Made by a program: the position numbers and the translations under genes. From positions 21 through 64,020 of the IMG/VR virus record IMGVR_UViG_3300033066_002315: a stretch of 64,000 nt of DNA; one strand, given 5' to 3'. Source of the DNA: a virus (lineage: Duplodnaviria; Caudoviricetes). This document shows positions 11,113 to 21,386 of the stretch, piece after piece. The notes under the pieces were generated by a model. The model worked only from the letters and a program-made list of their open reading frames with translations, did not search any database and had not been told where the DNA came from. The stretch's first letter is position 1, and the number at the start of each line of letters is the position of its first letter.

Positions 11113-11127
11113 TACAGTCGCCGCATG
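11113..11127 (+). promoter_or_regulatory. TANNNT-N6-ATG element (TACAGT) before terL; first of 22 such elements listed in findings
   Basis: TACAGT cgccgc ATG. Confidence 0.65.
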
Positions 11128-12561
11128 GGTATGCCCGCCCAGAGCCAGACGCGCGCCGACATCGAGCGCGAGATCGCGAGGCGCCGAGAGCAGCTCGGCG
11201 CGGCCGCGAACGATTGGGTTCCGAATCCCGGACCACAGACGCGCTTCCTCCAATCGTCCGCCGACGAGGCGCTCTACGGTGGAGCCGCCGGCGGTTCGAA
11301 GACCGAGAGCCTGCTCGTCGCCGCGCTTCGCTACGTCCACGTACCAGGCTACCGCGCGATCCTCTTCCGCCGACAGGGGACGCAGCTCACCAAGCAGTTG
11401 ATCCCGCGCGCGCGCCTGCTCTATCGCCGGCTCTTCCCGCGCGGCCAGGTGCGGTGGCACGCGACGGATCGCCGCTTCACGTTCCCCAGCGGCGCGACAA
11501 TCGAGTTCGGCGCCGCCGACAAAGAGCAACACATCGAGCGCTGGCAGGGCTTCGAGTTCGCGTTCATCGCGTTCGATGAGCTCACCGCGTTCACCCGCTA
11601 CCAGTACACGTTCATGTTTTCGCGGCTCCGCTCGACGGTCGCGGGACTCCCGACGCGAATGCGCGCGGGCACGAACCCGGGCGGCCCTGGACATGAATGG
11701 GTCCTGCGGCGCTGGGCTCCATGGCTCTATCCGCTCGGCCACATCGAGTACAACGGCCAGCGCGCGCGCGATGGTGAGCCGCTCTGGATGGAGCCCATCG
11801 AGGACAGCGACGAGGAGCGCATCGCAGAGCCGGGCACGCCGACGGCGATCTCGCGCACGTTCTTCTCGTCGCGCGTGTCGGACACGCCGCAGCTCGGCGA
11901 GGAGTACGAACGCAAGAACCTGAGCGGCCTCGACCGGCTCACGCGCAAGCGCCTGAAAGACGGCGATTGGATGGCGCGCGCCGTCGCTGGCGAGTTCTTC
12001 GAGCGCGGCTGGTTCGAGATCGTCAACGCGGGGCCGCGCGATGTCCTGCTCCGCCTGCGATATTGGGATCTCGCCGGCACGAGCGAGAAACACGCGACGC
12101 CCTCGACGGCCTACACGGCGGGGCTGCTCATGAGCGTCTCGCACGATGGCGTGCTGTTCATCGAGCACGTGCTCCGCGCGCAGCTCTCGCCGGGTGAGGT
12201 CGAGCAGACGATCGAGCGCACGCTCGCCGCCGACCGCATCGAAGACGACGGGGTGATCACGATCATCGAGCGCGACCCCGCGCAGAGCGGGAAGTTTCAG
12301 GCCTGGTACTTCGGGCGCAAGCTCGGGATCAAGGCGATCCCACCGAACGGCAACAAGCTCTCTCGCGCGTTGATCGCGAGCGCCCAGGCCGAGGCGGGCA
12401 ACATCAAGATCGTGCGCGGCTTGGGATCGGTGAGATGGATCGAGCCCTTCCTTCGGGAGGCCGAGAGCTTCCCCGAGGACAAGAAAGACCAGATCGACGC
12501 GCTCTCTGGAGCCGTGCGCTTCGCGCTGCTCAAGATCGCGAAGATGCTTGGGCGCCGTTGA
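11125..12561 (+). CDS. terL: Terminase large subunit
   Basis: YGGAAGGSKT Walker A, AFIAFDELT Walker B, TNPGGPGHEWV, nuclease motifs YWDLA and KDQIDA. Confidence 0.95.
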   Translation: MGMPAQSQTRADIEREIARRREQLGAAANDWVPNPGPQTRFLQSSADEALYGGAAGGSKTESLLVAALRYVHVPGYRAILFRRQGTQLTKQLIPRARLLYRRLFPRGQVRWHATDRRFTFPSGATIEFGAADKEQHIERWQGFEFAFIAFDELTAFTRYQYTFMFSRLRSTVAGLPTRMRAGTNPGGPGHEWVLRRWAPWLYPLGHIEYNGQRARDGEPLWMEPIEDSDEERIAEPGTPTAISRTFFSSRVSDTPQLGEEYERKNLSGLDRLTRKRLKDGDWMARAVAGEFFERGWFEIVNAGPRDVLLRLRYWDLAGTSEKHATPSTAYTAGLLMSVSHDGVLFIEHVLRAQLSPGEVEQTIERTLAADRIEDDGVITIIERDPAQSGKFQAWYFGRKLGIKAIPPNGNKLSRALIASAQAEAGNIKIVRGLGSVRWIEPFLREAESFPEDKKDQIDALSGAVRFALLKIAKMLGRR

Positions 12562-12865: not shown

Positions 12866-12906
12866 GCCGCATCGACGTCGGGCGGCGCTGATATACGCTG
12901 CCGACC

Positions 12907-15900
12907 ATGCGCCGCTTCGGTCCCCAGCCCGCCCTCTCCTCCGGTCCGATCTTCGCTGCGTCCTCGCGCGCGCCGTCGCCTTCGATCGCGCTGCACGAAC
13001 GATCCAGCCCGCGCAGCGCGCGGCGGCGTGCCTTCCTCGCTGCAGCTCGCACGGCCTCGACGCCGCGCGAGCTGCTCGACGTGAACGCCCTCACGCGCAA
13101 CCTCTTCACCGATCGACTGCCGTTCGCCGAGAAGTTCCGACCCTTCTACGGGCGGATCGACATGGCATTGATCGCCGAGGTGCTGCGCATGTCGGACGTC
13201 GGGATCATGACCCCGATCGCCGACCTCGAGCGGGAGACGCTCGCGCTCGATCCGCACGCGAGCATGCTCCCGCAAAAACGGTTCGGGGTGCTCTCCGCGC
13301 TCGAGCCCCAGGTCGACGCCGCGAAGGGCGACGGGCTCGACCCGAAGCTCGCCGAGGAGATCGCTGCCGACGTGCGAAGCATGATCTCCAAGATCCGCGG
13401 CCTGCGCGCCGCGATCTACGACATCGCGTGGTCGCTCTTCGATGGGCGCGGGGCGCTGGAGATCGATTGGGCGCACGTCGGGGGTAAGTACCCTTATCGT
13501 CCTGTCGCGCTCGACTGGATTCACCCGCGCCGGATCGCGTTCGGCCCCGATCGCGAGCTGCGGGTTATCGACACGTTCACGAACGGGCGCGGATGGTGGT
13601 CGCCGAACGGGATCGCGCTGCGCGACTATCCGGGGAAGTTCGTCACATGGATGCCGCGGTACTTCTGCGACTACCCGGAGCGAGAGGGCTTGGGCCGGCG
13701 CTCGCTGTACTGGTGTCTCTTCAAACGCTTCTCCAACCGAATGCGGATGGTGCTCACCGAGCTCTTCGCGATCCCGTGGCGCACGATCGAGTTCGATCAA
13801 GACACCGAGTTCAGCACCACCTCATGGGAGGACATGGAGGCAGCCGAGGACGCAGCCGAGGCGCTCGGCGGGGAGAACAGCGTCGCGATCCCACCGGGCG
13901 GGCGCCTCCGCGTGCAATGGCCGGGCGAGAACAGCGGGCAGCTCTTCGAGCTGACCCGCACCGGCGTCAACGACGAGCTGTCGAAGCTCTGGGTCCTCAA
14001 CACCGGGACGAGCGACATGAAGGCCGACGCGCTCGGCGGGGGCGCCACGGCGGTGCACAAGGGCGAGCAGAACATCGCGCAGGACCGCGACGCGTTCGGA
14101 ATCGCCGAGGTCTTCCAAGTCGATCTCGTCGACGTCTACGTGTTGCTCAATCGCGGTCCCGCGTTCCTCGACTACTCGCCCACGATCACGCTCGTCACGA
14201 AGGACGTCAAAGACCGGGCGAAGGCGCAAACCATCTTGGAGAACGCGATCAAGATGGGCGTGCCCGTTTCGCTCGGCGCCTACTACGAAGAGACCGGCGT
14301 CCCTCACCCCGACGAAGGCGAGCCCGTGATCGTCGCGAGCCCCGACGCCATGGGAAACATGATCGGTCACATCGTGTTCCCCGAGAGCTGGGACGGTCCG
14401 CGGATCGGCGAGCCGCCTGCATCGGATGAGGGCGAGGCCAAGTCCGAGGAGCCGATCTACGCCTACCACATCGAGCAAAACATCGTGGCTCGTGACGAGG
14501 CTCGCGCGAAGATGAACCTGCCACCGCTGCCCGGCGGCGCCGGCTCGGTCGAGACGCTGGCGGCCAACCTCCAAGCCGCGGCCGAAGCCGCGAAGCAGGG
14601 CGGCGCACCGCCCGGCGCGCCCGGCGCGCCAGGCGCGCCGCATCGTTCGTTTCCACCACGCGCCGCACCCGCTGCGGACAAGCCGAAGGCGCCGCAGGAT
14701 TCACCGGCAACGAGCGACGAAGAAGCGACGCGCCGTCTCGCGGAGCGCGCGCGCGTCCTCGCCGCGGCGCACCACGCGCCGACGGTCAACGGCACCGAGG
14801 CCGAGCTGGTCTCGCGCGGCGTGCGCGAGGGCGTCCGGCACACCGCGGTCTGGGCGCAGTCCCTCGTCGACGCGATCGATGATGAAGGACACGATCATCT
14901 CGCCGCGCACCGCGCGCTCACCAAAGCCGCCGACGCGTTCAACCTCGAAGGCTTCGCGCGCGCGATCGAGCGCACCACGATCCTCTCTCTCGCGCTCGGC
15001 GCGCTCGACAGCGCCTGGGAGAGCGCGGCCGACGCTACGCCGCAGCAGGCGAGCTTCCGCGAGGCGCGCGGCGACGTGCTCATCCTCGCGAGCCCCCTCG
15101 GTGCGCTCGAGATCCCGCAGTTCACCACCAAGCCGTTCGCGGAGGCGATCTCAAGCTTCCTCGGGAAGAACATCGTCTCGCGCCGCTTCTTCGATCGCCT
15201 CACTGCCGAGGCGAAGCGCCGATCGTTCACCGTCGCTGGGCTCGCCCAAAAGCGCATGCTCGTGGTCGCGCACGAGGAGCTGACGAAGGCCATCACCGAG
15301 GGGATCGATCTGCGCGAGTTCCGCGCGCGGCTCGCGCAGCGCTTCGAGTCGAACGGCTGGACGCCGCTCAACAAGTCGCACGTCGAGACCGTCTTCCGGA
15401 CCCAGGTGCAAGGCGCGTATGCGAGCGGGCGCGACGTCCAACAACGGCAGCCCGAGGTGCTCGAGGCCCGACCGTACTGGCAGATCCAAGGCGTGAAGGA
15501 CGATCGCACGCGCGACGCGCACGCGGCCGCGCACGGCAAGGTGCTTCACTACTCCGATCCCTTCTGGACGCGCGCGCCGCTCCCCTGGGGTTTCAACGAG
15601 CGTTGTCGCCGCGTGACGCGCTCGGAGGCGGACCTCGCGCGCCTCGGCCTCCAGGTCACGAACGGCGCGATGCTCAGCGGCCTCCCCGACGAGGGCTTCG
15701 ACGCGGGCGCCGGCGGCCTCTTCGAGCGCGGGCGCGCGAGCTTCGTCGAGCTCTGCGTCTATCTCCCCGCGATCTGGCTCGACGCGGCCAGCGATGGGGC
15801 CGCGCGCGGCCCCAAACCGGAACCCGCGGCGGCGCCGGCCGCGCACGATGGGGCCGCGCGCGGCCCCATCGTGCGGATCTACGCGGACTCGCTGGTTGTC

Positions 15901-16629
15901 CTGATCGACCGGCCCGAAGGCACCGTCGAGACGGGCACCAGCGCGGACGGCACCGAGTGGTCGCGCACGTGGCCCTTCGACGGCGGCGAGCTCCCCGGCA
16001 CGCAGGCGGGCGACGGCGAGCCGATCGACGTCTTCTGCGGCCCCAAGGCCGACGCGCCGATCGCCTTCTGGCTCGTGCAGAAGGGCGACGATCCGGAGCT
16101 GCGGCTCGCGCTCGGCTGGGAGAACGAGGCGGCCGCGCGCGAGGCTTACGGATCGGTCGTGCCGATCGAGATGCTCGACCGCGTGATCGCGCAACCCGTC
16201 GAGCACGTGAAAGCGATCCTCGGCCTCGCGCCCGACGCGAGGCATCTCGAGGTGCGCAGGCTCGCGGATCCGACGCTGCTCGTTGCAGGCTGGGAGCGCG
16301 AGCTGCTCGACGACGGTCCGCTGGAGTTCGGCCACGAAGAGCAACTGCGGAGCGAGGTCGGGAAGTTCACGCCCAACGGCGAGGGCCACATCTCGGCCGC
16401 GGCCCACGTCACGGAGGTCTCCGCGCCGTTCGCCACGCACGGCAACACGCACCACCAAGATCGCGTGCAGTGGGCGGGCGTGAAAGCGAAGGCGCTCGGC
16501 AAGCCGGTCTACGTGATCCCCAACGCGAAGGCCGGGCATCTCGACGGCGGAGTCTCTCTCAAGACGAGCCCGCCGAAGAAGGGGCCGTACCACGCGGTCC
16601 ATCCGGACGGCTCGATCACGCACCACTGA
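12907..16629 (+). CDS. Portal protein (DUF935/Mu gp29-like) fused to Mu gpF-like head morphogenesis domain and an InPase-like domain
   Basis: Portal-like N-half after terL; VFRTQVQGAY..GR, RPYWQ, DDRTRDAH, WGFNERCR (gpF); IDRPEG...W...GELPGT..GDGEPIDVFCGP (InPase-like). Confidence 0.85.
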   Translation: MRRFGPQPALSSGPIFAASSRAPSPSIALHERSSPRSARRRAFLAAARTASTPRELLDVNALTRNLFTDRLPFAEKFRPFYGRIDMALIAEVLRMSDVGIMTPIADLERETLALDPHASMLPQKRFGVLSALEPQVDAAKGDGLDPKLAEEIAADVRSMISKIRGLRAAIYDIAWSLFDGRGALEIDWAHVGGKYPYRPVALDWIHPRRIAFGPDRELRVIDTFTNGRGWWSPNGIALRDYPGKFVTWMPRYFCDYPEREGLGRRSLYWCLFKRFSNRMRMVLTELFAIPWRTIEFDQDTEFSTTSWEDMEAAEDAAEALGGENSVAIPPGGRLRVQWPGENSGQLFELTRTGVNDELSKLWVLNTGTSDMKADALGGGATAVHKGEQNIAQDRDAFGIAEVFQVDLVDVYVLLNRGPAFLDYSPTITLVTKDVKDRAKAQTILENAIKMGVPVSLGAYYEETGVPHPDEGEPVIVASPDAMGNMIGHIVFPESWDGPRIGEPPASDEGEAKSEEPIYAYHIEQNIVARDEARAKMNLPPLPGGAGSVETLAANLQAAAEAAKQGGAPPGAPGAPGAPHRSFPPRAAPAADKPKAPQDSPATSDEEATRRLAERARVLAAAHHAPTVNGTEAELVSRGVREGVRHTAVWAQSLVDAIDDEGHDHLAAHRALTKAADAFNLEGFARAIERTTILSLALGALDSAWESAADATPQQASFREARGDVLILASPLGALEIPQFTTKPFAEAISSFLGKNIVSRRFFDRLTAEAKRRSFTVAGLAQKRMLVVAHEELTKAITEGIDLREFRARLAQRFESNGWTPLNKSHVETVFRTQVQGAYASGRDVQQRQPEVLEARPYWQIQGVKDDRTRDAHAAAHGKVLHYSDPFWTRAPLPWGFNERCRRVTRSEADLARLGLQVTNGAMLSGLPDEGFDAGAGGLFERGRASFVELCVYLPAIWLDAASDGAARGPKPEPAAAPAAHDGAARGPIVRIYADSLVVLIDRPEGTVETGTSADGTEWSRTWPFDGGELPGTQAGDGEPIDVFCGPKADAPIAFWLVQKGDDPELRLALGWENEAAAREAYGSVVPIEMLDRVIAQPVEHVKAILGLAPDARHLEVRRLADPTLLVAGWERELLDDGPLEFGHEEQLRSEVGKFTPNGEGHISAAAHVTEVSAPFATHGNTHHQDRVQWAGVKAKALGKPVYVIPNAKAGHLDGGVSLKTSPPKKGPYHAVHPDGSITHH

Positions 16630-16743: not shown

Positions 16744-16782
16744 GACGCCCCGGCTTGTCCCCCCGAGCCGGGGCGTCGCTTT
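16744..16782 (+). terminator. Rho-independent terminator
   Basis: 12-bp stem GACGCCCCGGCT/AGCCGGGGCGTC followed by GCTTTT. Confidence 0.75.
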
Positions 16783-16871
16783 TGGCCGGCGGCCATCGCG
16801 TTCGGATCGCGCCATGCCCCTCTTGACTTCCGTCGATTCCCGGAAGCCCGGCGATCGGCTACGTTCTGCCC

Positions 16872-17405
16872 ATGGCTCTCTCCACCATCCCCGTTCGCGC
16901 CGCCAACTTTCTCACCTCCGCGCTGTATCGGGCGCTCGTCGTTCTCCGCGGCGAGGTCGAGACTCGCCTCGCTGCCGCGGAGGCCTCGATCGCCGCGAGC
17001 CTCCCGGTCTCGAAAAAGACGGTCACCATCGGCCACGCCGATCTCACCGATGCAGTGGCCGGCGAGGCGCAGGCGATCAACCTCTCCACCGCGCTGCCTT
17101 CCAACGCGCGGATCGTCGGCACCGACATGCGCTCGTACACCCCGTTCACCGGCGGCTCGGTGTCCGCGGTCACGTGCGACATCGGCACGAGCGGAGACGT
17201 CGACGCGCTGATCGACGGCGCCGATCTCCAGACGGCGGCGGTCGACGGCGGCCCGGCGACGATGCCCAAGGGCGTCCGGCCCAACAAGACGTTCGCCTCC
17301 GGCGGGCAGCTCCTCGCGACCTTCTACCCGGACGGGGGCCACGCGCTCGACGCGCTCACCGCGGGCAGCATCGTGATCGACGTGCTCTACGTCGTGCTCG
17401 CGTAA
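16872..17405 (+). CDS. Putative head decoration or structural protein
   Basis: Head-module position; beta-rich; TACGTT-N6-ATG. Confidence 0.6.
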   Translation: MALSTIPVRAANFLTSALYRALVVLRGEVETRLAAAEASIAASLPVSKKTVTIGHADLTDAVAGEAQAINLSTALPSNARIVGTDMRSYTPFTGGSVSAVTCDIGTSGDVDALIDGADLQTAAVDGGPATMPKGVRPNKTFASGGQLLATFYPDGGHALDALTAGSIVIDVLYVVLA

Positions 17406-17427: not shown

Positions 17428-19482
17428 ATGCCCCTCGCCCTATCCGTCCTCGCCCGTCGCGCCATCTGGGCCGCGCGCGTGCCCAAGCTCTTCTCCGACT
17501 GGATCGAGATCGCCAACGACACGGCGGACCCGATCCAGGTCGAACTCGGCGACGCGCGATGGATCCAGATCGCCACCGCGGGCAGCTACAAGGGCCACCA
17601 TTCCGGCCCGTTCGAGATGACCTCGGCGGTCTTCGAAGAGATCTCGCGCAACTTCCATCGGCACCCCTCCTTCAAGCAAGGGCCGGGCGGCTACGGCGTC
17701 GCCGACGTGATCCCATTCGACTGGCGGCACGCGAGCGAGAAGAGCCCGGCCGAAGGCGGCGCGCTCGCGATCGTCACGCAGGCGGCGCAAGGATGGGCGA
17801 CCGATCTCCAGGTGCGCACGATCCCCGTCGCCGCGAAGGACGGCACCGGACGCCCCACGATCGACACGCGCCCGACTCTCTGGGCGCTCGGGCGCATGCT
17901 GGAGCCGGCGAAGACCATGATCAAAGAGGGCCGGATCAAGTGGACCTCGGTCGCGATCTGGCCCGACACGCCCGACCCCGTGACGGGCGAGAACATGGGG
18001 ACATATCTCAGTTCGATCGCGCTGACGAACGACCCGTTTATTCAAGGCATGTACGCCATCGCGGCCGATCGCTCTGCGGCTCCTGTGCTCGCGTCCTCGC
18101 GCTGGATCGACCCTTACGACATGCCCACGACCGCGAGCGGTGTGCTCGAGCGCCTTCGTCGCATCTTCGGCCTCGCGGAGATGGCCGATCTCGGTGAGGT
18201 GCTCCGGCAGATCGCGACGCTGCGCGCCGCGGCGCTCGGCACGATGGCGGCGCCGCCGGGCGTCGACATCCCCGAGCTGGTCGGCGCGTTGCGCTGTCTC
18301 TTCAACCTGCCCACGCTCGAGACCGTCGAGCGCGTCTTCGAAGAGGCGGATAAGCTCGTCGCGGCCATCGCTTCCGAGCAGGCCGCCAAGAACGCGCCGG
18401 CGCGTCAGCCGGCGTCGCCGGCGCCGGCGACGAACACGATCCCACCGCCCATCGCTGCCGCGAGGGCGCCGAACACGAACCAAGATCCGAAGGAGACGAT
18501 CATCATGAAGGAGCTCATTGCTCTACTCGCGGCGGCGTTCCGCTGCTCCCCGACCGAAGAGGCCGTCTTCGCCGAAGCGAAGCAGATGCTGACGCTCGAT
18601 CGCAACGTCGACCTCAAGATGCTCTTCGGCATGGCCGGCGGCGACGGCGGCGACGCCGCGAAGGCCTACGAGAAGATCAAGTCCCTCATCGCGGCCGCCG
18701 CGCCCTACATGACGCCCGGCGCGCCGTCCAACGTCGAGGAGGCGACGCGCGCGCTCGTCAAGCAGTGCTCGGAGATCTCGACGCTGATGAAGGTCGTCCC
18801 CGAGCTGGCCTCCGTGCTGGAGATGTCCGCGGATGACGAGGACGAGGACGCGATGGGCGACGTCATGGGGGTCATGGCGAGCCGCGGCTACACGGCCGGC
18901 GCCGATGGCCGGCTCGCGCTCGATCGCGATGGCGCCGATCACGCGAACATCCTCCTGCACCGGCGCACCGGCGGCCTCGCGCAGTTCGCGAAGAAGCCCG
19001 CGGCGACCGCGAGCGCGACCGAGCTCCTCGCGTGGGTCACCGACGTCAAGACGCTGCTCGAGCAGCGCAAGCGCGCGCGCGCGGAGTTCCACGCCGAGTA
19101 TTTCACGGAGCCCGAGCAGCCCGCCAACCACGGGCACTACCTCCTCGGCCGCCTCGCGGTCGGGCAGCGGGACAACTCCGCGACCGCGCTCGCGCGCGGG
19201 CCGCAGGCGCGCGTCGGCCAGAGCTTCGCCTTCGGCGGGCAGCGCCCGGGACCGGCGATGCCCGACCAACTCCCCGGCGGCCCGAACGCGCCGCAGCTCC
19301 CGGACCTCGCCGCGTTCTCCGGCAACCGCACGCAGCGCTTGCTCGCGGCGGCCGCGGAGCGCGCTGGCGCGCAGTGGCCGAAGCTCAACGACGACGAGCG
19401 CTTCGCGAAAAAGCGTGAGCTGGAGGCTCTGTACGTGAGCGCCGGGCACGACCTCACGAAGTTCGACGTCGTGAGCGCGTAG
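17428..19482 (+). CDS. Mu-like prohead protease with scaffold region
   Basis: WIQIATAG, IPFDWRH, AQGW, IALTNDPFI motifs; long helical C-terminus; SD GGAGG. Confidence 0.85.
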   Translation: MPLALSVLARRAIWAARVPKLFSDWIEIANDTADPIQVELGDARWIQIATAGSYKGHHSGPFEMTSAVFEEISRNFHRHPSFKQGPGGYGVADVIPFDWRHASEKSPAEGGALAIVTQAAQGWATDLQVRTIPVAAKDGTGRPTIDTRPTLWALGRMLEPAKTMIKEGRIKWTSVAIWPDTPDPVTGENMGTYLSSIALTNDPFIQGMYAIAADRSAAPVLASSRWIDPYDMPTTASGVLERLRRIFGLAEMADLGEVLRQIATLRAAALGTMAAPPGVDIPELVGALRCLFNLPTLETVERVFEEADKLVAAIASEQAAKNAPARQPASPAPATNTIPPPIAAARAPNTNQDPKETIIMKELIALLAAAFRCSPTEEAVFAEAKQMLTLDRNVDLKMLFGMAGGDGGDAAKAYEKIKSLIAAAAPYMTPGAPSNVEEATRALVKQCSEISTLMKVVPELASVLEMSADDEDEDAMGDVMGVMASRGYTAGADGRLALDRDGADHANILLHRRTGGLAQFAKKPAATASATELLAWVTDVKTLLEQRKRARAEFHAEYFTEPEQPANHGHYLLGRLAVGQRDNSATALARGPQARVGQSFAFGGQRPGPAMPDQLPGGPNAPQLPDLAAFSGNRTQRLLAAAAERAGAQWPKLNDDERFAKKRELEALYVSAGHDLTKFDVVSA

Positions 19483-20033: not shown

Positions 20034-21386
20034 ATGCTCACGATCTTCACCTCGAACAAGAGCGCTCCCAGCGCTCCGCAGCGTCGCTTCGGCCTCGGCC
20101 TCTCTCGCGGCCCCGGCCTCACGCAGCAGCTCGACGCCAGCCGCAGCGGTCGCGCCGACACGCGCGCGCCCGAGCGGTCGAACTGGACTCCGCCGACCGC
20201 GCGCGAGTTCTCGCGCGTCAACAACCCCAACACGATCCCGATCCAGCTCGTCGGCGACACGGAGGGCACGCAGCGGATCGGCGATCGCGTGCTCAAGCCC
20301 GGCGAGCGCATCACGCTGGAGTACGATCAGGCCGAGGGCGTGCTGCTCGACCGCAGCGGCCACGCCGTGATGTTCGGTTTGACGCCGAGCGACGTGCACG
20401 ATCCCACCGAGTTGGGAACGTACTTGGCCGGTTACAACAACGAGAATTTCCGGCACGAAGAAGCCGCGCAGGTGATCCCCGTCACGATGGACGAGGACAA
20501 GTACCGTACGTTCAACTCCTCGGCCGCGTTCAAGCCCGTCACCGTCAAGACGGATGACGACGCCACGCCGGCGGAGGTGAAGGTGACGAGCAGCCTCACC
20601 AACTACAAGGTCGTGGTGCGGCGAATCGCGGCCTTCATCCCCGATCCCACCGCGAAGCAGGTTTCGAACAGCGGCTATGACTTGCGCTTCGTGCACATGA
20701 AGCGCTGCAAGCGGGCGATCAACATGGACCTCGAGCTCGACGTGCTCGGCTCCAGCGGGCTGCTCACCACGAGCGGCAACTGGAACTCGAACAACGCGGT
20801 CGCACTCGCGGCGAACTACGCCTGGGGCGACACCACGGGCAACTCTGCCAACGCGGGTGCGCTCTCCGATCCGATCGCCGATCTCAACGCGCGCATCGTC
20901 GCCAGCGCCGCGCTCATCAGCGGATGGATGATGAACCACCGCGTCGCGCTCTGCTTCCTCTCCCACGAGAAGGTTCGGAGCTACATGCGGCAGTGGCTCG
21001 GCGACGCCAACGCGACCTCGATCGCGCGCCAGGTCGCGCAGGCGCGTGGCGCGGGCGTCTTCGACTTCGAGCTCCCGATGATCGGCGCCGTGAAGGTGAA
21101 CACCGCGCGCGTCGAGAGCAACACCGCCGGCACCACCACCGACTACATCATGCCGAACGTCGTGCTCGGCCTCACGCAGCCGCCGGGCGTCCCGACGAAC
21201 GGCGAAGAGATCGCCACCGCCTACAACTTCCGGCGCAAGGGGCCGGCGGGCGTCGGCTTCTTCACGCGCGAGGTGCGGTTCGACGCGCGCGGTGCGGGCG
21301 GCACGATGATCATCGTCGAGGAAGCCTCGATCCCGACCATGACCAGCACGATCGCCGGTGGCTTCATCGGCGACATCCTGCAGTAG
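20034..21386 (+). CDS. Major capsid protein (cap E/Mu T-like)
   Basis: LGTYLAGYNN..F...AQVIPV...KY..F pattern; position; SD GAAGGA. Confidence 0.8.
   Translation: MLTIFTSNKSAPSAPQRRFGLGLSRGPGLTQQLDASRSGRADTRAPERSNWTPPTAREFSRVNNPNTIPIQLVGDTEGTQRIGDRVLKPGERITLEYDQAEGVLLDRSGHAVMFGLTPSDVHDPTELGTYLAGYNNENFRHEEAAQVIPVTMDEDKYRTFNSSAAFKPVTVKTDDDATPAEVKVTSSLTNYKVVVRRIAAFIPDPTAKQVSNSGYDLRFVHMKRCKRAINMDLELDVLGSSGLLTTSGNWNSNNAVALAANYAWGDTTGNSANAGALSDPIADLNARIVASAALISGWMMNHRVALCFLSHEKVRSYMRQWLGDANATSIARQVAQARGAGVFDFELPMIGAVKVNTARVESNTAGTTTDYIMPNVVLGLTQPPGVPTNGEEIATAYNFRRKGPAGVGFFTREVRFDARGAGGTMIIVEEASIPTMTSTIAGGFIGDILQ

Follow-up and report, generated by a model that had tools for sequence, protein, structure and literature searches.

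A Mu gp29-type portal protein is joined to a gp30/SPP1 gp7-type MuF head protein in a single gene of an uncultivated Mu-like phage, and the fused chain ends in a cassette comprised of an InPase-family domain and an orphan module. The gene lies in the window, the 64,000-nucleotide stretch analyzed here, which is nearly the whole of a 64,020-bp contig. The fusion is genuine and recurs in related uncultivated phages. The proposed mechanism, in which twelve cassettes carried into the head by the portal would be freed by proteolysis and exit with the DNA, is considered probable as a whole, with the InPase domain less likely to be a canonical inorganic pyrophosphatase than a hydrolase of altered specificity or a metal/phosphate-binding module that lacks catalysis.

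Organization of the fused gene

The protein, designated P0001, carries three Pfam matches, each above its gathering score: Portal_Mu (PF06074; residues 107-465, 138.9 bits versus a cut-off of 23.9, covering profile positions 3-336 of 336), Phage_Mu_F (PF04233; residues 789-901, 55.2 bits versus 29.6) and InPase (PF18823; residues 991-1086, 47.5 bits versus 26.8). The portal, MuF and InPase parts that an earlier note on this DNA had placed in one 1240-residue chain are thus all present, and the Pro/Ala linker and the InPase motifs it quoted are found in the ORF translation. The portal and MuF parts also match PHROG families, the MuF part to phrog_220 (E 6.5e-43). A crown-like segment, I-V-A-R-D-E-A-R...L-P-P-L-P-G-G, closes the portal region. 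At the end of the MuF core, P0001 reads W-G-F-N-E-R-C (residues 894-900) where more distant relatives have W-G-H-N-C-R-C, so that the NERC for NCRC remarked on previously is correct. Among the homologous protein clusters GF[NS]ERC is found in P0001-P0005 and P0023 and GHNCRC-like sequences in P0006-P0012 and P0024, the exact G-H-N-C-R-C being present in P0007-P0010 and P0012 and lacking in P0001; the motif is typical of the family and is no formal criterion of membership.

The first ~70 residues of the orphan C-terminal module are predicted to be disordered and include H-E-E-Q-L-R-S-E-V-G-K-F (E-N-Q-P-R-D-K-D-G-R-W at the equivalent place in P0023), and the final ~55 give a weak model of a helix and four strands, the chain ending A-V-H-P-D-G-S-I-T-H-H. 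Its one known homologue lies at the C-terminal end of P0023 (35% identity, E 6e-12), and the module matched no toxin family. The "short basic/His-rich tail" of the earlier description holds for the histidines, of which there are 12, but the module is 128 residues long and not notably basic.

GC3 runs at 0.78-0.98 along the entire frame, tail included, and the pattern is lost past the stop. The ATG at 12907 is the likely true start, since an alignment of relatives' N-termini shows that M-R-R-F-G-P is kept. The upstream TACGCT hexamer (Table 1) is similar to a TANNNT-N6/7-ATG pattern ahead of other late genes (TACGTT-N6 before 16872, TACGAT-N6 before 22098, and TAGGAT-N6/7 before 27331 and 29455), a pattern that is possibly a candidate promoter of the leaderless type. 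Gene order in the region is TerL, the fusion, a small ORF, a gpI-like protease, a cement protein and the major head protein, and TerL followed by the fusion is also the order in relatives L002, L006 and L007. The small ORF (177 amino acids) gave no match in family searches and occupies the position of Mu gene G.

Table 1. Features of the fused gene and its surroundings (window positions).
Feature	Position	Strand	Basis
Large terminase, upstream neighbour	11125..12561	+	Order also seen in L002, L006 and L007
TACGCT hexamer, 7 nt 5' of ATG	12894..12899	+	Upstream sequences of late genes compared
Fused ORF P0001	12907..16629	+	Uninterrupted 1240-codon frame, stop included
N-terminal extension, aa 1-59, low complexity, M-R-R-F-G-P start	12907..13083	+	Alignment of relatives' N-termini
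Mu-type portal region, aa 60-563	13084..14595	+	Portal_Mu match, PHROG, Mu gp29 alignment
Pro/Ala/Gly-rich linker, aa 564-604	14596..14718	+	Length and sequence variable among relatives
MuF/SPP1 gp7-type head protein region, aa 605-945	14719..15741	+	Phage_Mu_F match, PHROG, Mu gp30 alignment
G-F-N-E-R-C, aa 895-900	15589..15606	+	More distant fused relatives have G-H-N-C-R-C here
Second linker, aa 946-985, Ala/Pro-rich	15742..15861	+	4.75-kb insertion at the equivalent site in L001
InPase-family domain, aa 986-1112, predicted pyrophosphatase-like beta-barrel	15862..16242	+	Pfam, alignment, model
Orphan C-terminal module, aa 1113-1240	16243..16626	+	Single homologue known (P0023)
Terminator-like hairpin, 15-bp GC-rich stem then T-run, 115 nt past ORF stop	16744..16783	+	MFE -37.9 kcal/mol, z -2.9
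Mu gpI-like head protease/scaffold, 684 aa	17428..19482	+	phrog_328 and PF10123 matches

The InPase domain

InPase relatives are numerous, with 1614 representatives at E<=1e-3 in the library searched. The domain model has a pLDDT of 91, its top Foldseek matches are all family I pyrophosphatases (PPases), and VIA-align superimposes it on PPases with Z 6.0-6.6 over 100-116 residues (rmsd 3.2-4.6 A). A Z of about 6 is a middling match, convincing mainly because every match is a PPase and the sequence profile agrees. A family I pyrophosphatase-like fold is predicted with confidence, and the PPase fold assigned earlier to the C-terminal segment is borne out by model, Foldseek and structural alignment alike. 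The profile of the family I enzymes themselves (PF00719) is absent among the Pfam matches of P0001 up to E=1.

Family I PPases (EC 3.6.1.1) have a D-x-D-x-x-D active-site motif and substrate contacts by Tyr55, Lys104, Lys29, Arg43 and Tyr141/Lys142 (E. coli numbering). Alignment of the family profile to E. coli PPase residues 51-73 sets the equivalents of Tyr51, Tyr55, Asp65, Asp67 and Asp70; P1063, E1064 and R1066 we take to be Glu101, Asp102 and Lys104, from an ungapped sequence comparison rather than a structural superposition. Six carboxylates (D1001, D1025, D1036, E1038, D1041 and E1064) are kept, in columns that are 90-100% conserved, and D1001, D1036, D1041 and E1064 supply the four conserved acidic residues of the criterion of Iyer et al. 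(2017). G1026, P1063, R1066 and V1084 replace the near-invariant Y/D/K/H of the family, at positions 92-97% conserved across it. The combination Y-D-K-H occurs in 139 of 155 family domain rows, and P0001 and its four nearest relatives have G-P/R-R-V/I, replacements that are themselves conserved within the P0001 clade. Further changes are Y1022W, G1034A and, throughout the clade, the loss of three residues from the D-G-x-F-D-E-Y-K loop. Compared with E. coli PPase, Tyr51 has become Trp, Tyr55 Gly, Asp67 Glu and Lys104 Arg, and the signature reads D-G-E-P-I-D instead of D-G-D-P-V-D. The whole InPase family is without the beta-hairpin that bears Lys29/Glu31 (PMC5512222).

Because four near-invariant residues are replaced, the Tyr55 and Lys104 equivalents among them, and the loop is shortened, canonical pyrophosphatase activity appears doubtful, and the proposal in the earlier note of an enzyme tethered to the portal is weakened. 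It is the apparent loss of these two equivalents, of the adjacent Asp and of the conserved His, with the metal-binding carboxylates kept, that makes the altered-specificity hydrolase or non-catalytic binder the more likely identity. Some real catalysis, on some substrate, may be possible, since the carboxylate cluster is intact and the clade conserves its replacements.

Among 92 other InPase proteins, 50 have an XkdF-type prohead protease domain, 8 have Portal_Mu and 3 have Mu-like_Pro, so prohead proteases are the partner of over half of this sample. InPase habitually rides on proteins that enter the procapsid. Partners in other phages also include NUDIX, GNAT and LigD phosphoesterase domains and, in 3 of the 92, a domain like that of Tad3, a Thoeris inhibitor (PMC13728456). 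PMC5512222 describes InPase among the domains of phage polyvalent proteins, in agreement with the earlier note.

Proposed mechanism and possible roles

Since portal C-termini face inward, a dodecameric portal would hold twelve copies of the MuF-InPase-tail segment inside the head, and the fusion would render covalent the portal-MuF contact of SPP1 gp6-gp7. The gpI-like protease, encoded two genes downstream, is the candidate processing enzyme, and its cuts probably fall within the flexible linkers or close to them, by analogy with Mu gp29, whose C-terminal 124 residues are missing from the virion structure, protease I having been proposed to trim them off (PMC11915804). After cleavage, MuF-InPase would be present as free internal proteins of the head and could exit with the DNA. 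A conserved cleavage motif was looked for at the domain borders of the fused chains, and none was found.

What the InPase domain does within this scheme may be read in several ways. It could be an active enzyme, a PPase or an immune-signal hydrolase, that is borne by the portal, released by the protease and injected, and that aids early transcription/replication or disarms defence. Exactly such roles were proposed by Iyer et al. in 2017 (PMC5512222), and the Pfam InPase match, the PPase fold, the six retained carboxylates and the NUDIX, GNAT, LigD phosphoesterase and Tad3-like (3/92) partners elsewhere are consistent with them; however, the changes to the Tyr55 equivalent, the Asp, the Lys104 equivalent and the His, all in highly conserved columns, together with Y1022W and the shortened loop, make this an unlikely account of P0001.

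It is tentatively suggested, again as an improbable reading when taken singly, that the clade's InPase, with the orphan module, has been repurposed for a role other than PPi hydrolysis. It might, for example, be a metal-dependent binder or "sponge" for a ligand rich in phosphate (polyphosphate, a nucleotide immune signal or the end of the DNA), with twelve copies per virion delivered or held at the portal; more generally, InPase would be a capsid cargo that gets into heads fused to any available assembly protein, in over half of cases the prohead protease and otherwise the portal or portal-MuF.

A purely structural role is rather improbable. Here the MuF-InPase-tail body would stay on the portal under the crown, never released or injected, and would organize or retain the DNA end or help assembly. 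According to work cited within PMC5576092, SPP1 gp7, a MuF protein, binds both portal and DNA; a fused chain fixes the stoichiometry at 12:12, long flexible linkers would be suitable as a tether, and degenerate catalytic residues with a MuF motif lacking its His and first Cys fit a loss of chemistry. Against this stand the C-terminal processing precedent of the Mu portal (PMC11915804) and two features of the relatives. In L001 the 4.75-kb insertion splits the InPase part from portal-MuF and leaves the InPase frame open, which suggests that it can work untethered. The region past InPase varies from 35 to about 950 residues between relatives, which is typical of conflict-type cassettes and not of structural parts.

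Recurrence of the fusion

Other assemblies contain at least 16 homologues, at 34-64% identity, in which Portal_Mu and Phage_Mu_F share one chain, and the full portal-MuF-InPase order is found in six protein clusters (P0001, P0002, P0003, P0005, P0023 and P0024/P0170), which come from separate assemblies and share neighbour genes. The contig is metagenome-derived (JGI/IMG), and a missed stop, a frameshift or a chimeric assembly might have fused separate portal, MuF and InPase genes, but such an artefact is very unlikely and close to refuted, because the same fused order recurs in independent assemblies (ENA/JGI/NCBI, NCBI GCA and Logan) at 45-67% identity, while single-frame GC3 stays at coding level throughout the ORF and P0023 carries the orphan tail fused too. 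The assembly error against which the earlier note had cautioned is thus very unlikely.

Comparison with known systems

P0001 can be regarded as a natural "Rosetta stone", with portal and MuF in one chain where the two interact in SPP1 and are encoded by adjacent genes in Mu, and it supports the view that MuF proteins act at the portal's inner face. Its fixed 12-copy stoichiometry would provide a system for asking if MuF-borne cargo is cleaved and ejected, and the clade's coordinated loss of four invariant residues offers a natural control for InPase assays. Current concepts are unchanged. This type of architecture was predicted and catalogued in 2017 (Iyer et al.). That paper (PMC5512222) already lists portals fused to InPase, as well as MuF and portal domains that carry effector domains, and the novelty seen earlier in the fusion was overestimated.

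Portal and MuF are encoded by two genes lying side by side in Mu and other cultured phages, as the earlier note had held to be usual. The order after TerL is alike in Mu (gp28-gp29-gp30-G-I/Z-T), but gp29 and gp30, from two genes overlapping by 20 nt, are joined in one ORF in P0001. Residues 90-479 align to gp29 residues 46-416 (25% identity) and residues 743-946 to residues 15-234 of gp30, the "minor head protein and DNA pilot" (34% identity), and the G-H-N-C-R-C type motif reads G-F-N-E-R-C. The C-terminus of Mu gp30 is an inactive PBECR-type domain (PMC5512222), a slot that InPase and the orphan module take in P0001. Jamet et al. (2017; PMC5576092) found the MuF gene immediately 3' of the portal gene; in P0001 MuF is in frame with the portal.

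Pbunavirus-type portals (Pa193/E217 gp19, PDB 9b41; BcepF1.124) likewise carry InPase on the interior-facing C-terminus, but lack the MuF domain that lies between portal and InPase in P0001. In the PDB, the InPase domain has its best sequence match in Pa193 gp19 (profile E 2e-23), and this domain is the sole match, the gp19 portal being no close sequence relative of P0001. Residues 529-765 of the Pa193 portal, InPase included, are without cryo-EM density (PMC11042391). Pa193 gp19 keeps the family Tyr, Asp-Glu and Lys (H-H-Y-G, F-D-E-H-K) where P0001 has G, P and R. With E. coli Ppa the domain shares the beta-barrel and a family-level segment, Y-x-x-x-Y-G-x-I-P-x-T-x-x-x-D-G-D-x-x-D-V, but it is about 120 residues long as against about 175 for a family I PPase.

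T4 internal proteins and Alt are targeted inside the prohead, trimmed by protease and ejected with the DNA. They resemble the scheme proposed for P0001 in their working only, since they use a short capsid-targeting peptide, are not fused to the portal and have no sequence relationship to P0001. Polyvalent proteins, MuF-fused effectors and MuF toxins (PMC5512222; Zhang 2012, PMC3482391; PMC5576092) share with P0001 an N-terminus for incorporation into the head, a variable C-terminal cassette and a location in the packaging module, and among the close relatives of P0001 the post-MuF region is highly variable. Like polyvalent proteins, P0001 strings together unrelated domains in a single polypeptide and is encoded amid the virion and packaging genes of a phage with a portal-terminase system; packaging into the virion and delivery to the host with the DNA, also expected of such proteins, would apply to it if the proposed scheme holds. 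MuF polymorphic toxins have a toxin domain and an immunity gene, whereas P0001 has no recognized toxin domain or identifiable immunity gene and its cassette is a degenerate InPase. For portal, MuF and cassette in one chain, the three papers (Iyer 2017, Zhang 2012 and Jamet 2017) mention PBECR and 2H rather than InPase, the cassette that P0001 carries.

A single coding frame

The fusion discussed here is a 1240-residue product that is read in one uninterrupted frame of 1240 codons and carries a Mu-type portal, a MuF domain, an InPase domain (PF18823, the pyrophosphatase-like domain of phage polyvalent proteins) and a C-terminal tail module. All three Pfam matches lie above the curated cut-offs (see table). 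Among PHROGs the chain is matched by phrog_113 (portal) and phrog_220 ("minor head protein and DNA pilot"), and the InPase part alone by several families. GC3 holds at 0.78-0.98 over the whole frame, up to the last complete counting interval, in a sequence that is 69% GC overall, and the pattern is lost past the stop codon; the entire length, including the tail, thus looks coding and in one frame. Since the N-terminal M-R-R-F-G-P is kept among relatives, the ATG at 12907 is the probable start. The Pro/Ala linker, InPase motifs and N-E-R-C reported in the earlier note are all found in the sequence; the tail that it called "short" has in fact 128 residues.

Features of the fusion gene and its late-gene neighbors
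Feature	Position (nt)	Residues of product	Remarks
Large terminase	11125-12561		directly before the fusion in late-gene order
Fusion	12907-16629 (+)	1-1240	one frame
R-R-F-G, fusion	12910-12921		extreme N-terminus
Portal_Mu		107-465	Pfam, E 3e-40
Phage_Mu_F		789-901	Pfam, E 1e-14
Linker repeat	15802-15876		D-G-A-A-R-G-P twice, 18 codons apart
InPase		991-1086	Pfam, E 2e-12
Tail module		1113-1240	last 128 residues
177-aa ORF			next after the fusion; no family match
Mu gpI-like protease/scaffold	17428-19482		after the 177-aa ORF
Cement protein			between protease/scaffold and major head protein
Major head protein	20034-21386	1-450	after the cement protein
R-R-F-G, major head protein	20082-20093		in P-Q-R-R-F-G-L-G-L, near N-terminus

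Recurrence of the fusion

Comparative evidence argues strongly that the fusion is real. Portal_Mu and Phage_Mu_F share one chain in 16 homologues of 34-64% identity, and the full portal-MuF-InPase arrangement recurs in six protein clusters (P0001, which is the fusion itself, P0002, P0003, P0005, P0023 and P0024/P0170). These come from separate assemblies (ENA/JGI/NCBI, one NCBI GCA assembly and several Logan runs), and their loci have neighbors in common, including a MoxR-type ATPase upstream and a gpI-like protease downstream. The fused form is absent from the cultured phages of the searched collection: megablast of the head module gave no match to a cultured phage, and tblastn of the whole fusion returned only split portal/MuF genes of at most 37% identity, none covering 80% or more of the query. 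A single-protein scan of isolate or MAG genomes found no relative, and an alignment scan of them gave two distant loci (L003 and L004), both in MAGs.

A natural split is found in the related locus L001 (clusters P0004 and P0021), in which a portal-MuF gene of 954 aa lies 4.75 kb away from the InPase part. The gene is broken precisely within the MuF-InPase linker, with the InPase frame remaining open. Genes of the intervening block (L001:8865-13655) are mostly on the opposite strand and include one for a 387-aa protein with a weak match, below cut-off, to IS1-type DDE transposases (E 1e-4). The block looks like a mobile-element insertion.

The InPase domain

A pyrophosphatase-like fold in the C-terminal segment, which the earlier note had proposed, is borne out by structural and profile comparisons. 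The domain was modeled at pLDDT 91 from an alignment of solo InPase proteins, and the leading Foldseek hits of the model are all family I pyrophosphatases; VIA-align gave Z of 6.0-6.6 across 100-116 residues, and 118 chains reached a Z of at least 5. A Z near 6 is middling by itself, and is persuasive because all the hits listed are pyrophosphatases and because the InPase family profile aligns with residues 51-73 of E. coli PPase.

The family comprises 1614 representative clusters (E <= 1e-3), and column statistics were drawn from 155 domain rows. The fusion keeps D1001, D1025, D1036, E1038, D1041 and E1064, and departs from columns that are 92-97% conserved elsewhere at six positions: Y1022W and Y1026G (the equivalents of E. 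coli Tyr51 and Tyr55), G1034A, D1063P, K1066R and H1084V. K1066R lies at the probable Lys104 equivalent, from an ungapped comparison with the E. coli sequence. At the Asp67 position the fusion has Glu, as does most of the family (65%). The D-G-x-F-D-E-Y-K loop is three residues shorter in the fusion by deletion. A four-position pattern, Y-D-K-H, is present in 139 of the 155 rows; G-P/R-R-V/I is restricted to the fusion and the four relatives closest to it; P0024 is intermediate at the same positions, with C-P-K-H. As the derived residues are conserved within the clade, the domain is under selection, though probably not for canonical pyrophosphate hydrolysis. Because catalytic-site residues are degenerate, an altered or non-catalytic module is ranked above an active pyrophosphatase effector.

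Linkers, MuF motif and tail module

Following the portal core is a crown-like segment (I-V-A-R-D-E-A-R...L-P-P-L-P-G-G), to which V-N-E-x-R-x-x-x-x-L-x-P-L of clusters P0009-P0011 and P0023 is related, and then a Pro/Ala/Gly-rich linker whose length varies freely among relatives. The MuF core motif reads G-F-N-E-R-C in the fusion, P0002-P0005 and P0023; most of the other fused relatives have G-H-N-C-R-C. The His and first Cys are lost together, and the change tracks phylogeny. In the linker between MuF and InPase, where the DNA is GC-rich and of low complexity, there is a short direct repeat. Its D-G-A-A-R-G-P was considered as a protease cleavage motif and rejected, as relatives do not keep it and A-R-G-P turns up often in every frame of this GC-rich sequence.

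The region beyond InPase varies greatly in length: about 35 residues in P0002 and P0003, 128 in the fusion, about 245 in P0023 and about 950 (948) in P0005. The last of these, a close relative of 1962 aa (L006:7001-12889), carries a large C-terminal cargo on its portal-MuF-InPase chain. None of these regions matches a known family; for P0005 and P0023 both Pfam and PHROG searches were negative, as was a PHROG search with the 177-aa downstream ORF. The only homologue of the tail module of the fusion is the C-terminus of P0023 (35% identity, E 6e-12); the two have in common a Q-x-R-x-x-x-G-[KR]-[FW] motif and the ending A-V-H-P-D-G-x-I-x-H-H. The module was unmatched in Pfam (E <= 10), the ESM Atlas, tblastn against phages and a word-index search of shorter proteins; its AF2 model has a mean pLDDT of 47.6, and the best structural match of that model (Z 4.6, to minor pilins and a rudivirus protein) is at noise level. 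A guessed likeness of the module to DUF2188 found no confirmation, and neither did one of the shared Q-x-R-x-x-x-G-[KR]-[FW] motif to "PRDxxGRF"-type motifs of other phage head proteins.

Genome context and transcription signals

The source of the window is a single 64,020-bp contig of JGI/IMG origin from an uncultivated phage; terminal repeats were looked for in this contig and none were found. Sheath, tape measure and baseplate genes lie farther along the late-gene cluster. A TACGCT hexamer is found 7 nt upstream of the fusion ATG (TACGCT-N7-ATG) and resembles the TANNNT-N6/7-ATG of other late genes. Such hexamers stand 6-7 nt before the starts at 16872, 22098, 27331 and 29455, in genes without a Shine-Dalgarno sequence, and their placement suggests leaderless late transcripts. 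A strong hairpin and T-run lie downstream of the fusion stop; together with the upstream hexamer, these sequence patterns suggest that the fusion gene may be its own transcription unit.

The major head protein matches its PHROG from residue 124 onward only, so that about 120 residues form an N-terminal extension; this may be a delta/scaffold-like domain that the gpI-like protease removes. R-R-F-G is common to the fusion and the major head protein; it may be a signal for assembly or processing that both use, or else chance.

InPase partners and a possible mechanism

In a census of 92 other representative InPase proteins (the family alignment, A5), the domain is almost always carried by a protein that goes into the procapsid. 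The XkdF-type prohead protease domain (PF14550) is present in 50 of the 92, a Mu-type portal in 8, a Mu-type protease in 3 and an S78 protease in 1. Three carry a Tad3-like domain (Thoeris ThsB inhibitor), and other partners are D12 methyltransferase, DUF6582, LigD phosphoesterase, NUDIX and GNAT domains. Among these sampled proteins, protease fusion is far commoner than the portal fusion cited in the literature.

MuF genes come after those for portals, and in SPP1 the portal is bound by gp7 (PMC5576092). The virion structure of Mu lacks the last 124 residues of gp29, a loss put down to protease I cleavage (PMC11915804), and in Pa193 the C-terminal third of the portal, which bears InPase, is not visible by cryo-EM (PMC11042391). 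Packaging and injection of InPase domains have been proposed by Iyer et al. (PMC5512222). Everything beyond one ORF with named domains is what we infer for the fusion: twelve MuF-InPase-tail units would be loaded inside the head, then probably released by the gpI-like protease, and would either accompany the DNA out of the head or have their function at the portal.

Comparison with known systems

An InPase-portal fusion was already described by Iyer et al. 2017 (BcepF1.124), as were the effector domains PBECR and 2H joined to MuF and portal domains (PMC5512222). Particular to the present fusion are the joining of a Mu-type portal, MuF and InPase on one chain, which is rare (six clusters were found), an InPase site that has degenerated specifically in this clade, and the orphan C-terminal module. 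Its main use would be as a natural control in biochemical work on the InPase family, and it would also serve as a fixed-stoichiometry model of MuF cargo delivery. The gene order around it is the same as the late order of Mu, gp28-gp29-gp30-G-I/Z-T, and its residues 90-479 align with Mu gp29 (25% identity) and 743-946 with gp30 (34% identity); in Mu, however, gp29 and gp30 are encoded by two genes that overlap by 20 nt, whereas in the window there is one.
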